Part shown: positions 2,684-4,449 of the stretch, piece by piece | Position numbering within the stretch: position 1 is the first letter of the stretch | Layout of the letters: every line of letters begins with the position of its first letter | IMG/VR virus record: IMGVR_UViG_2917393062_000001 | Location: 1-4,710 of that record | DNA length: 4,710 nucleotides | Direction: 5' to 3' (one strand) | Origin: a virus | Taxonomy: Duplodnaviria; Heunggongvirae; Uroviricota; Caudoviricetes | Program-made: the position numbers and the translations under genes | The notes under the pieces: model-generated | Seen by the model: the letters and a program-made list of their open reading frames with translations, nothing else | Told to the model about the DNA's origin: nothing | The model's database searches: none

Positions 2684-2875
2684 TTAAAGCCCTGCCGGGA
2701 CTTCGTTATTATCCATGCGAATAACTTTATCAACCGGATAACAGTTGCCGGGAATTTTCTGTTCCGCTGCGGCAGCCATGCACTCTTTCATTGAACCATA
2801 TATACCCGTAACCACATCAACCGGTTCGCCCGTATTAAGAAAAACGGTCAGAGTGAGAGCAATAGCAGTATTCAT
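2684..2875 (-). CDS. Small hypothetical protein (63 aa) with a hydrophobic, signal-peptide-like N-terminus (MNTAIALTLTVFLNTG...) and two Cys
   Basis: ORF in the same frame as track ORF 2684..2929, but I prefer the internal ATG at 2875-2873 because it has AGGA 8 nt upstream and overlaps the upstream stop as ATGA (translational coupling). The longer 81-aa version has no comparable ribosome-binding site. Confidence 0.5.
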   Translation of the reverse strand: MNTAIALTLTVFLNTGEPVDVVTGIYGSMKECMAAAAEQKIPGNCYPVDKVIRMDNNEVPAGL

Positions 2876-3060
2876 TGCCAGTATCCTTTTTGCATCAGGC
2901 GTGAACGGGCCAGCATTGAAGCAATGCATACCTTATTTAATAAATTCGGTTCGCGCTTTATCTGGTTAATGGCATCTTCAATAAACTGTTTTTTGCCAGT
3001 AATAACGCCAATTTCAAAACGAGTTTCAGGCGTAGTGGAATTGAGTAATAACGTTTCCAT
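2872..3060 (-). CDS. Small hypothetical prophage early protein (62 aa)
   Basis: ORF with ATG at 3060-3058 preceded by GAGGA (plus-strand tcctc 3068-3072) 7 nt upstream. Stop TGA overlaps the next ATG (ATGA at 2875-2872). Same orientation as and immediately upstream of the exonuclease gene, as for the small kil/racC-class genes of Rac-like prophages. No family recognised. Confidence 0.5.
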   Translation of the reverse strand: METLLLNSTTPETRFEIGVITGKKQFIEDAINQIKREPNLLNKVCIASMLARSRLMQKGYWQ

Positions 3061-3077
3061 TATCGCGTCCTCAGGAA

Positions 3078-3222
3078 TGAATTTTGTGATGCGGTGCCTG
3101 GTGCCTCCAGGTGACGTTAACCAGTTAACAATTAACGCCGGATGTATAAGGAGTTTCGTTACGCCAGTAAAAGGTCACTTTACTGTTTTAACTGAGCCGC
3201 ATTCACCGCATCACAAAATTCA
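3078..3222. repeat. Perfect 19-bp inverted repeat, arms tgaattttgtgatgcggtg (3078-3096) and caccgcatcacaaaattca (3204-3222), separated by 107 bp
   Basis: Exact reverse complements, checked base by base. The proximal arm ends 18 nt upstream of the ATG of the 62-aa gene (3060). Confidence 0.8.
3116..3136. repeat. Cluster of three TTAAC motifs (two full GTTAAC palindromes at 3116-3121 and 3125-3130, plus ATTAAC at 3131-3136)
   Basis: acgTTAACcagTTAACaaTTAACgcc read directly; lies inside the spacer of the 19-bp inverted repeat. Confidence 0.6.
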
Positions 3223-3223
3223 C

Positions 3224-3269
3224 TTTAAAAAGGGCGGGTATCACAGGGAAAACAAAACGGATACCCGCC
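3224..3269 (-). terminator. Terminator-like hairpin in the leader of the leftward small-gene/exonuclease operon: 10-bp GC-rich stem (ggcgggtatc 3233-3242 / gatacccgcc 3260-3269), 17-nt loop, then TTTTT on the minus strand
   Basis: Perfect 10-bp inverted repeat. On the minus strand the stem is followed by cTTTTTaaag (plus aaaaa 3227-3231). The orientation is such that it would stop or attenuate leftward transcription entering the operon. Confidence 0.4.
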
Positions 3270-3422
3270 AAAAGGTAATCAACATGGGTTGTTGTAGCTG
3301 ATTGCCACAACCGGAAGCGCACGGACTAAGATGCCGGCGGCACGCAACAGAGGGAGAAGTGACTTCGCCGTGCGCTTTCGTGTTGTGTGCCTGCTTTTAA
3401 CCACGTCAGGCGAGGTGGTTCC

Positions 3423-3462
3423 TGTTATTCCCCAACAACAAGAAATTTGTATAATCCGGATA
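3423..3462 (+). promoter_or_regulatory. Candidate sigma70 promoter for the plus-strand zinc-ribbon gene: perfect -10 TATAAT at 3450-3455 with TG immediately upstream; weak -35 (TTATTC/TGTTAT around 3423-3430)
   Basis: TATAAT read directly at 3450-3455 (tttgTATAATccgg), 35-60 nt upstream of the candidate start codons. The -35 is poor, so activity may depend on the adjacent TG or on a factor binding the flanking direct repeats. Confidence 0.4.
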
Positions 3463-3478
3463 TCCCCAACAACGAGAA
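3429..3478 (+). repeat. 16-bp direct repeat tccccaacaac(a/g)agaa at 3429-3444 and 3463-3478 (15/16 identical, 34-bp period) flanking the TATAAT -10 element
   Basis: Read directly; the two copies bracket the -10 hexamer at 3450-3455. Confidence 0.7.
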
Positions 3479-3513
3479 GAGTATGTAACGTGATAGTTGA
3501 GTTCTCAGCAGCA

Positions 3514-3945
3514 ATGTCGGCAATCAAAGAAACTGCGGTAATGGCAAAGGGTATTCTGAATGCCAAAAATCAAACTGAGATAAATTCCGCTGTCAGCGAT
3601 ATGCTTTCAAAACTTACGTCTGTTCAGTTTGAATGCGTATCGCTCATTGAGATGGTGCGCTCTTATCAGGAAGAAGCCGCATCTCTCAAAGCAAAAATTG
3701 CAGAGATAGAAGACTTTCAGCAACAGGCGGAAGGTTACAAACTTAACAAGCTTGATTCTGGAACTCTTGTGTATTCCAAGAAGCAATTTATAGGCGATAC
3801 TGAGATAACAGTGCATCTTTGCCCACAATGTTTTGGAAAAAAGGTAATATCTGTACTGCAACCAATGGAAATAATGCGCCTTGATGCTCATTTTCGTACT
3901 TTTTGCCCCGCTTGCAATAATAAGTTCTGGATGAACTCAAGATAA
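3514..3945 (+). CDS. Coiled-coil / zinc-ribbon protein (143 aa from ATG 3514; 151 aa if in-frame GTG 3490 is used); candidate accessory (exclusion/defence or regulatory) moron
   Basis: Only convincing plus-strand ORF. Translation is protein-like, whereas the antisense ORFs (3279..3566, 3607..3891) are W/Y/F/C-rich junk. The N-terminal ~75 aa are heptad-like and charged (SLIEMVRSYQEEAASLKAKIAEIEDFQQQAEGYKL). The C-terminus carries HLCPQC...(25 aa)...FCPACNN, i.e. CxxC-x25-CxxC. GC is about 40% by hand count of a 60-nt sample, versus about 53% in a sample of the exonuclease gene. A perfect TATAAT lies at 3450-3455. Start codon uncertain: no strong SD before ATG 3514 or ATG 3541; GTG 3490 has a weak GAGAAGAG 8 nt upstream. 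The 204-aa track ORF from 3331 runs through the promoter and repeats and is rejected. Confidence 0.65.
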   Translation: MSAIKETAVMAKGILNAKNQTEINSAVSDMLSKLTSVQFECVSLIEMVRSYQEEAASLKAKIAEIEDFQQQAEGYKLNKLDSGTLVYSKKQFIGDTEITVHLCPQCFGKKVISVLQPMEIMRLDAHFRTFCPACNNKFWMNSR

Positions 3946-3990
3946 TTAACCGCTTAATAAGTTGGGACTATCCAGATTTTTAAAGAACAT

Positions 3991-4014
3991 GCCGGATGCT
4001 TATCCGTGTCCGGC
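3991..4014 (-). terminator. GC-rich hairpin (gccgga-N12-tccggc) between the convergent 40-aa gene and the zinc-ribbon gene; possible terminator for leftward transcription; REP-like motifs
   Basis: Stem gccgga (3991-3996) / tccggc (4009-4014) with a 12-nt loop. On the minus strand it is followed by aTGTTCTTTaaaaa (moderately U-rich); on the plus strand no T-run follows. Contains GCCGGATGC and TTATCCG, which echo the E. coli REP consensus, but it is shorter than a canonical REP. Confidence 0.3.
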
Positions 4015-4063
4015 GCCCGCACTTCATCTGTGGAGAAGTGCTTGAGCTCATTGGTCAGTAGTT

Positions 4064-4186
4064 TTAATCACTCGCGAAACTGGAAAGCGCCTGTTTAAAC
4101 TCACTGAAGCTGAGAGCTTCTTCGCCTTCGGCAAGGCCTTCGAAGTATTCTTCGTAAGCCTTTTCCATGATTGCGTCGAAATCCAT
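4064..4186 (-). CDS. Tiny acidic hypothetical protein (40 aa: MDFDAIMEKAYEEYFEGLAEGEEALSFSEFKQALSSFASD); alternative in-frame starts GTG 4195 or ATG 4228
   Basis: Hand translation of the minus strand (not in the supplied track, too short). ATG at 4186-4184 has AGGTGA 5 nt upstream and lies 1 nt after the stop of the 51-aa gene (TGAtATG). Followed by a GC hairpin at 3991-4014. Position and size match the second tiny gene downstream of the repressor in Rac/Qin-type prophages (ydaG/ydfB class), but the sequence itself is not recognised. Confidence 0.4.
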   Translation of the reverse strand: MDFDAIMEKAYEEYFEGLAEGEEALSFSEFKQALSSFASD

Positions 4187-4420: not shown

Positions 4421-4449
4421 AATTTAGTTTTCTCATGGTAATAGGTCAA
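4421..4449 (-). promoter_or_regulatory. Candidate sigma70 promoter for the 51-aa/40-aa gene pair: -35 TTGACC (plus ggtcaa 4444-4449), 17-nt spacer, -10 TAAATT (plus aattta 4421-4426)
   Basis: Read on the minus strand: cacTTGACCtattaccatgagaaaacTAAATTatc. The -35 matches consensus 5/6 and the -10 4/6 with ideal spacing. The predicted start is about 70 nt upstream of ATG 4343. Confidence 0.4.

Follow-up and report, generated by a model that had tools for sequence, protein, structure and literature searches.

The closest described counterpart of the locus analysed here is the sieB region of phage P22, in which the start site of sieB was reportedly mapped by Ranade and Poteete in 1993; the same work is said to have found that a -10 mutation abolished the P22 sieB promoter, that the lambda sieB promoter could be recognised by homology, and that a P22 mutant without the ability to switch kills itself. 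No mapped sieB transcription start was found in the literature that we searched. Translation of sieB is switched by sas, an antisense RNA that is required for the SieB/Esc system (PMC12197685, PMC7067206). In P22, sas is a minus-strand RNA of 127 nt as determined by RNA-seq (PMC13397905, Table 2), and a leftward antisense RNA of ~105–127 nt that switches the translation of a rightward gene has been shown for P22 only (PMC13397905, PMC12197685, PMC7067206). A second relevant system is Rip1, a pore-forming abortive-infection protein that is activated by small-terminase or portal rings (Patel et al. 2026, as summarised in PMC13434031). According to PMC13434031, Rip1 touches the ring of the phage small terminase with its C-terminal half, with no DNA-binding role described there, and both activation by small terminase or portal and pore formation are known for the Pseudomonas and HK446 proteins only.

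The window, that is, the whole 4,710-nt stretch of DNA that was analysed, represents the early-left region of an E. coli lambdoid prophage of the Qin/DicB type (Table 1). Its genes are arranged in the order ydfA/ydfB (minus), moron (plus), slot sRNA and dicB (minus), the moron being the sole plus-strand gene, and the cassette site is located in the early-left operon between ydfB and the DicF-slot sRNA. This is a rightward accessory gene lying antisense within a leftward early operon near the immunity region, and the same layout was found in 20 related loci as well as in lambda, P22, HK620 and Rac. The promoter-like site 5' of the ydfA-like gene is, judged by its sequence, likely the homologue of the pL/dicB-operon promoter. 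Because two terminator-like hairpins, one after ydfB and one inside the moron, are encoded on the minus strand ahead of the cassette, leftward transcription may stop before reaching it unless antiterminated; no N-like gene was visible in the window. The relative position of the hairpin inside the moron matches that of the annotated tL1 inside HK620 hkaP.

Table 1. Positions of genes, repeats, candidate promoter elements and predicted RNA structures in the window.
Feature	Position	Strand	Basis or remark
Exonuclease VIII-like gene	104–2590	minus	
DUF1482/ydfD gene		minus	
dicB	2872–3060	minus	
Predicted sas-like antisense RNA, ~123 nt	3372–3494	minus	Ends from colinearity with P22A-sas only
Stem GCCTG/CAGGC	3389–3393 with 3407–3411	minus	97% paired in sample
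Stem ACCAC/GTGGT	3400–3404 with 3415–3419	minus	97% paired in sample
Hairpin H3', 5'-UUCUUGUUGUU GGGG AAUAACAGGAA-3', 11 bp including two G.U	3419–3444	minus	Folding and covariation
Repeat copy 1 (box 1), TCCCCAACAACAAGAA	3429–3444	plus	Repeat and pattern search
TATAAT, probable -10 of PsieB-type rightward promoter	3450–3455	plus	Homology with P22 PsieB
Repeat copy 2 (box 2), TCCCCAACAACGAGAA	3463–3478	plus	Repeat and pattern search
Moron CDS, 151 aa, GTG start, Rip1-family by homology, phrog_1244	3490–3945	plus	
Terminator-like hairpin, ~100 nt inside moron	3587–3599	minus	
Terminator-like hairpin after ydfB	3993–4006	minus	Part of larger hairpin 3991–4014
ydfB-like gene		minus	
DUF1391/ydfA gene		minus	
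Sigma-70 promoter-like site TTGACC-17-TAAATT, 5' of ydfA-like gene	4421–4449	minus	Consensus match only

Several further features of the neighbourhood were observed. Phage Tritos is without the moron; where the window has the cassette and gene, it carries a 27-bp segment, located between the DicF region and ydfC. The ydfC gene is missing from the window (3945–4064, compared with the related loci L001 and L002), and L001 has both the moron and ydfC. In the minus-strand slot at 3222–3310, the window has an sRNA-like sequence distinct from both DicF, which fills this slot in Qin-type phages, and KilS, the annotated sRNA found there in K-12 Rac. This third sequence has 5' hairpins, a terminator (GGCGGGUAUC...GAUACCCGCC plus a U5 tract) and a fold z-score of -3.9; it had no Rfam DicF match, its 3' terminator and downstream flank are conserved, and its 5' 'seed' part has been replaced. 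In Rfam, the dicB 5' leader (3083–3220, minus strand) matched STnc100 weakly, at 27.9 bits and E = 0.003, which is short of the gathering score; this leader sequence also precedes kilR in Rac. The STnc100 match was the only Rfam match in the window, and cmscan returned no curated family at 3372–3494 with E ≤ 1. The sas-like element and the slot sRNA are separated by a region with a 13-nt inverted repeat (3312–3324 and 3368–3380), the arms of which are 92% complementary with 43 nt between them; the repeat was also found in Tritos and L001, and may be an RNase III-type processing hairpin of the leftward transcript. Inside the exonuclease gene, a 21-bp tandem repeat (974–1057; four copies, 74% matches) encodes a low-complexity Q/N/E-rich linker.

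The two near-identical 16-bp copies reported in the initial annotation are real: they agree at 15 of 16 positions, start 34 bp apart, and flank a perfect TATAAT, which was confirmed and is the most likely -10 for the promoter of the plus-strand gene. There were no further copies in the window at ≤3 mismatches, and the repeat grows by ~9 nt upstream with one 1-nt indel (TCCTGTTATT-CCCC... at 3420–3444 and TCCGGATAT-CCCC... at 3455–3478). When dinucleotide-preserving shuffling was applied to the whole window, only 2 of 300 shuffled sequences gave a comparable repeat (any 16-mer direct repeat with ≤1 mismatch and a spacing of 16–60 bp), so a chance origin is unlikely, and the matter is settled by the recurrence of the two-box arrangement, spaced by 33–36 bp, in 49 distinct related elements. 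A consensus scan reported no full sigma-70 promoter at the repeats because of the poor -35 (TTCCCC/ATTCCC); copy 1 overlaps this weak -35 region (TTCCCC). The -10 place is occupied by GATAAA in lambda and P22 and by GATAAT, GTTAAT/TAATCT or GATACG in other homologues, and TATAAT itself is not conserved, most relatives having GTTAAT/TAATCT. Copy 2 lies directly 5' of a purine-rich SD-like sequence (GAGAAGAG) followed by the GTG start, the position of which is fixed by the conserved N-terminus of the homologues (MI.E..AAM), and copy 2 is predicted to be the extreme 5' leader of the moron mRNA, with a start at ~3460–3462. Readings of the block with sigma-54, sigma-28 or sigma-E did not fit by eye, and a candidate leader peptide (a TTG...TAA mini-ORF at 3447–3488) was not conserved in homologues.

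On sequence grounds, the block that contains these repeats (3372–3494) is a member of the sieB promoter/sas antisense-RNA family, here attached to a Rip1-type gene. The block is colinear with the sequence upstream of sieB in lambda, P22 and K-12 Rac and upstream of hkaP in HK620, and blastn matched it to P22 (82.3% over 61 nt, E = 4e-6), to lambda (80.6%, E = 5e-5) and, in all, to 146 phage records that included lambda, P22, HK620 and HK629. The P22A-sas sequence (PMC13397905) is the exact antisense of the P22 block; it begins at the sieB start codon, continues across the two boxes and then the hairpin, and stops 17 nt beyond the last stem. The minus strand of the window from 3494 to 3372 is colinear with P22A-sas over the start codon, both boxes, the hairpin and both stems. 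The P22 genome used for this comparison was AB426868; the coordinates of NC_002371.2 disagree with the sas table. As in the described family, two boxes within the 33–36 bp spacing flank the -10 and are preceded by a hairpin and two interleaved stems. The controlled gene differs, being sieB with an internal esc start in the described family and a Rip1 homologue here; thus, the SieB/Esc logic is not simply transferable.

The cassette is widespread. It was found by blastn in 3042 of 5426 complete E. coli genomes, in 1375 of them over ≥80% of the block length, and an nhmmer profile of the block identified more than 50 further loci, many with unrelated ORFs at an almost constant distance. Matches from an initial, loose pattern scan (CCCCAACA..CCCCAACA) were filtered with nhmmer, and regex extraction after a second, box-independent scan yielded 96 distinct elements. 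Downstream of the cassette there were at least 28 unrelated protein families, which indicates that the controlled gene is not a defining part of it. Homologues of the moron protein itself were 46–75% identical, and at 13 loci of other genera the protein was 46–56% identical and the ~105 bp 5' of the start codon were nearly unchanged.

The constraint on copy 1 was found on the RNA of the strand opposite to the moron. The complement of copy 1 on the minus-strand RNA forms the 5' arm and the GGGG loop of hairpin H3', and the free energy of this segment in the window was -10.6 kcal/mol on the minus strand vs -1.4 kcal/mol on the plus strand; of 97 elements, 77 had the more stable hairpin on the minus strand. 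When 23 long forms (two-unit elements, described below) were aligned in register, 85% of hairpin cells were paired on the minus strand vs 72% on the plus strand, G.U pairs numbered 47 vs 14, and compensatory changes occurred at 7 of the 11 pairs. The minus-strand stability, G.U pairs and compensatory changes together indicate that copy 1 is under RNA-structure selection opposite to the moron strand. Copy 2 formed no comparable hairpin in the window, and the whole 136-nt minus-strand segment folded no better than its shuffles (z = -0.1).

The two interleaved stems (3389–3419) were 97% paired across 50 sequences and showed compensatory changes at 4 pairs, in a sample that is biased by the search pattern and in which covariation is thin; compensated stems include GCCCGG/CCGGGC in Rac and GCCTT/AAGGC with CCGC/GCGG at one further locus. 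Read on the minus strand, their loops are 2–3 nt (L1), 0–2 nt and 7 nt, A-rich (L3), which points to a canonical H-type pseudoknot geometry, whereas reading them on the plus strand leaves only 2 nt for the third loop. We propose that these stems form the structured 3' part of the antisense RNA. With RNAalifold, only 3 pairs were recovered from the plus-strand alignment because the stems interleave. Seven viral contigs carry the pseudoknot-like module (GCCTGCTTTTAACCAC.TCAGGCGCGGTGG) alone with different sequences after it, and at one such locus a consensus TTGACA follows; this suggests that the module is separable or marks a boundary of recombination.

Other structured elements were considered and rejected. 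A plus-strand structured leader or riboswitch is unlikely, as there is no conserved promoter 5' of the block, the third pseudoknot loop would be 2 nt long and the hairpin would contain C.A mismatches. A type III toxin-antitoxin system with a ToxI-like repeat RNA was dismissed because there are two partial units only and no ~36-nt repeat array, and because the downstream genes are mutually unrelated and none is ToxN-like; PADLOC gave only a weak SLATT-type match. An integron attC-like site was dropped, there being no core-site match, and an AgvB-like anti-GcvB sRNA was set aside because AgvB sits at the PR' moron site and not at the cassette site.

Comparison of the extracted elements revealed two forms of the cassette. 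About half of the 96 elements are short, with the stems, one hairpin unit, the SD and a start codon 33–41 nt after GGTGG; in these, TAT.CT after GGTGG completes an extended -10 (TGgTAT.CT), and TTcACC lies 16 bp 5' of it. In long forms there are two units, boxes 33–36 bp apart and a start codon 66–75 nt after GGTGG, so that the two forms differ by ~34 bp, and three downstream protein families occur with both. Unit 2 of the long form (TAATCTGG-ATAT-CCCC...) resembles the short-form unit (TATGCTGG-TAGTT-CTCAC...), and the TA of the -10 is gone from unit 1, which indicates that the repeat is a ~34-bp tandem duplication of a [-10 + leader] unit. Five box types were found among the long forms, each in both copies: CCCCAACAAC (present twice in the window), CCCCTACAG (lambda, P22, HK620 and Rac), TTCCACAGTCAA, CCCCCACAA and CCCCAATGCAA. 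Boxes were identical at 13.1 of 16 positions within an element vs 9.0 of 16 between elements. At one locus otherwise near the window (L145), AACAAC is changed to AATGCAA in both boxes and the opposite hairpin arm compensates; the sequences around box 2 have wholly diverged in lambda, P22, HK620 and Rac, and the 9–10 nt box itself still equals box 1. The joint change of the boxes and the divergence of the flanks argue for a shared constraint on both boxes. We guess that a match to the 5' leader of the mRNA is also required of the copy-1 hairpin in the antisense RNA; the co-variation could also come from repeated independent duplications.

Two features of the repeats had led the initial annotation to propose that a dimeric or tandem-binding regulator clamps the promoter, namely near-identical sites on either side of the -10 and their distance of 34 bp from each other; across the family this distance is fixed at 33–36 bp. 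In addition, the boxes co-vary within loci, as would operator pairs sharing one protein, and the poor -35 would fit an activator-dependent promoter. A regulator of this kind (the zinc-ribbon product, a DicA/CI-like repressor or a host factor) is nevertheless the least probable of the explanations weighed here, and we regard it as very unlikely. The same CCCCAACAAC boxes precede unrelated proteins and occur in prophages whose CI-like repressors are mutually unrelated, which excludes both the gene's own product and the immunity repressor as the cognate factor, and no regulator encoded in the element was found to co-vary with the box sequence. A single host factor is opposed by the difference in box types among phages of the same host (CCCCTACAG in lambda, CCCCAACAAC in the window, TTCCACAGTCAA in others). 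Moreover, the arms of the copy-1 hairpin compensate, with G.U pairs on the minus strand only, as expected from a constraint on RNA and not on a DNA site, and a Rip1 homologue, a protein described as a binder of the terminase ring, is an implausible DNA binder. Together with the homology to sas, the copy-1 RNA hairpin favours antisense-RNA control. The earlier expectation that the plus-strand gene is conditionally expressed very probably holds, and it is its attribution to a repressor or autoregulatory protein that was not supported.

It is also conceivable, and to us more credible than a clamp while still unlikely, that the repeats are a relic of duplication without a joint function, in which copy 2 is constrained as leader and antisense target and copy 1 separately as a hairpin arm, their identity being due to recent or repeated independent duplications or to gene conversion. 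The existence of one-unit and two-unit forms that differ by exactly one unit would be explained in this way, as would the three protein families with both forms and the resemblance of some one-unit boxes to two-unit types (TCCCTACAAC and CCCCACAGC at two short-form loci). Against a relic speak the copy-2 flanks of lambda, P22, HK620 and Rac, which have diverged completely around an unchanged box, the joint change in both boxes and the hairpin arm of L145, and the 33–36 bp spacing in all box types. A further reading, which we consider improbable, takes box 2 as a translational enhancer and/or a target of Hfq/GcvB-type sRNAs, with box 1 as a passenger: box 2, with its ACA/CAA motifs, directly precedes the SD in every long form, C/A-rich sequences of the CACAACA type are GcvB R1 targets, optimal translation needs ACA motifs, and Hfq binds ARN repeats near SDs (PMC4104026). 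The box types CCCCTACAG and TTCCACAGTCAA are poorer GcvB matches, however, and the conservation and co-variation of box 1 would be left unexplained. Such a role of box 2 is compatible with control by an antisense RNA and does not exclude it.

By sequence and fold similarity to the solved structure, the product of the moron is a homologue of Rip1. A profile of the moron family matched PDB 9oox, 'ring interacting pore 1', with an hmmsearch E of 2.2e-17, and the single sequence did so with a phmmer E of 3.3e-7. The AF2 model (pLDDT 88.3), which has long N-terminal helices and a C-terminal Cys4 zinc-ribbon beta domain, gave a Foldseek match to 9oox_M with probability 1.0 and TM scores of 0.63/0.73; 9oox is HK446 Rip1 bound to the T6 small terminase. 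HK620 hkaP, which lies behind a lambda-type cassette in the sieB slot and is annotated as a 'putative superinfection exclusion protein', is also a Rip1 homologue (29.9% identity).

We therefore favour, with a probability of about 0.6, a bidirectional cassette of the sieB type, in which the moron would be ON in the lysogen and would be shut OFF by an antisense RNA during leftward early transcription. The plus strand would carry a promoter with a weak -35 and a strong -10, the TATAAT standing at the proposed -10 place of P22 and lambda PsieB; the mRNA would start just 5' of copy 2 and have a short C/A-rich leader ahead of the SD-like sequence and the GTG. On the minus strand, the cassette would be part of the leftward early (pL/dicB-operon) transcript and would give rise to a counterpart of P22 sas. 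The 5' part of this RNA would pair with the start codon, SD and copy 2 of the moron, its middle would be the stable hairpin built from copy 1, and its 3' end would probably be defined and protected by the interleaved stems of pseudoknot geometry. The two repeats would have arisen when the ~34-bp [-10 + leader] unit was duplicated in tandem in a one-unit ancestor, after which the hairpin was retained in the upstream unit, whose -10 was lost, and promoter and leader were retained in the downstream unit. In the lysogen, the leftward promoter would be repressed and the moron would be expressed from its own promoter; once the prophage is induced or a related phage infects the cell, transcription from the left would run antisense through gene and cassette, and the sas-like RNA would pair with leader and start codon so that new synthesis of the suicide protein stops. 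Such a shut-off would spare the phage from its own suicide gene (self-immunity). The transcription start in the window prophage, and the production and action of its antisense RNA, are inferred from P22.

A wider reading is possible and is put forward tentatively, namely that the cassette is a portable bidirectional riboregulatory module that acts as a general self-immunity switch, on in the lysogen and off in the lytic cycle, with the boxes kept identical by selection, since the copy-1 hairpin of the antisense RNA would have to recognise the copy-2 leader of the mRNA. Such a module would combine a promoter and leader on one strand with a hairpin-plus-pseudoknot antisense RNA on the other, recombination would have placed it before dozens of unrelated accessory and defence genes across Enterobacteriaceae, and box recognition would be a specificity code that diversifies between phages. 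The sieB promoter/sas family is already known from P22; how widely the cassette occurs, its existence in one-unit and two-unit forms and the box co-variation were not found described in the literature reached and are the modestly novel part. If the favoured reading is right, it would explain how a prophage can carry a Rip1-type suicide gene triggered by phage morphogenesis proteins without killing itself on induction, and would widen the 1993 observation on P22 sas/sieB to a cassette that over half of the complete E. coli genomes contain and that precedes at least 28 gene families. In that case, a sequence model (pseudoknot, hairpin, box or boxes, SD) would be a cheap marker for accessory and defence genes expressed by lysogens in lambdoid prophages, and the unannotated antisense RNA would merit entry in RNA family libraries. 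In the narrower sense, a testable RNA model takes the place of a speculative protein-operator model.

In promoters clamped by direct-repeat-binding proteins, such as lambda CII at TTGC-N6-TTGC, direct repeats likewise overlap elements of a weak -35 promoter; CII-type repeats straddle the -35, whereas the repeats in the window, spaced by 34 bp, span -35 to +15. Unlike at CII-type promoters, no cognate protein co-varies with the boxes, and copy 1 is constrained by RNA pairing on the other strand. The moron product and HK446 Rip1 share ~21–22% identity over the Foldseek structural alignment, and its function is presumed from homology; Pseudomonas Rip1 is encoded between the terminase genes, whereas the homologue in the window occupies the sieB slot behind a sas-type cassette.

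The likeness to P22 PsieB/sas is close. Both have a rightward accessory gene in the same slot, antisense in the leftward early operon by the immunity region, both have the order of pseudoknot-like stems, hairpin, box 1, -10, box 2, SD and start, and in both the boxes are 34 bp apart. They differ in box sequence (CCCCAACAAC in the window vs CCCCTACAG in P22), in the -10 (perfect TATAAT vs GATAAA) and in the controlled gene (a Rip1 homologue vs SieB); no internal Esc-like second start of the P22 type is evident in the window gene, and the antisense RNA of the window prophage is predicted from homology to P22. The architecture is identical upstream of lambda sieB, where GCCTGTCTTTTAACCACATCAGGCTCGGTGG is followed by two CCCCTACAG boxes 34 bp apart, and the region upstream of sieB in K-12 Rac has the compensated GCCCGG/CCGGGC stems and boxes CCCCTACAG/CCCTTACAG 35 bp apart; relative to both, the window has another box type and another downstream gene.

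Among classical antisense systems, CopA/CopT, RNAI/RNAII and hok/sok likewise place a structured antisense RNA over the translation initiation region of the target. The antisense scaffold of the window ends in pseudoknot-like stems and not in a terminator as in these systems, and, unlike classical antisense RNAs with their own promoter, it would seem to be cut from a long operon transcript, as is reportedly the case in P22 and as suggested by a consensus scan of 3000–4100 that found no minus-strand promoter-like site. In common with CopA/CopT, RNAI/RNAII and hok/sok, variable loop or box sequences are set in a conserved scaffold, as would be expected of specificity determinants.
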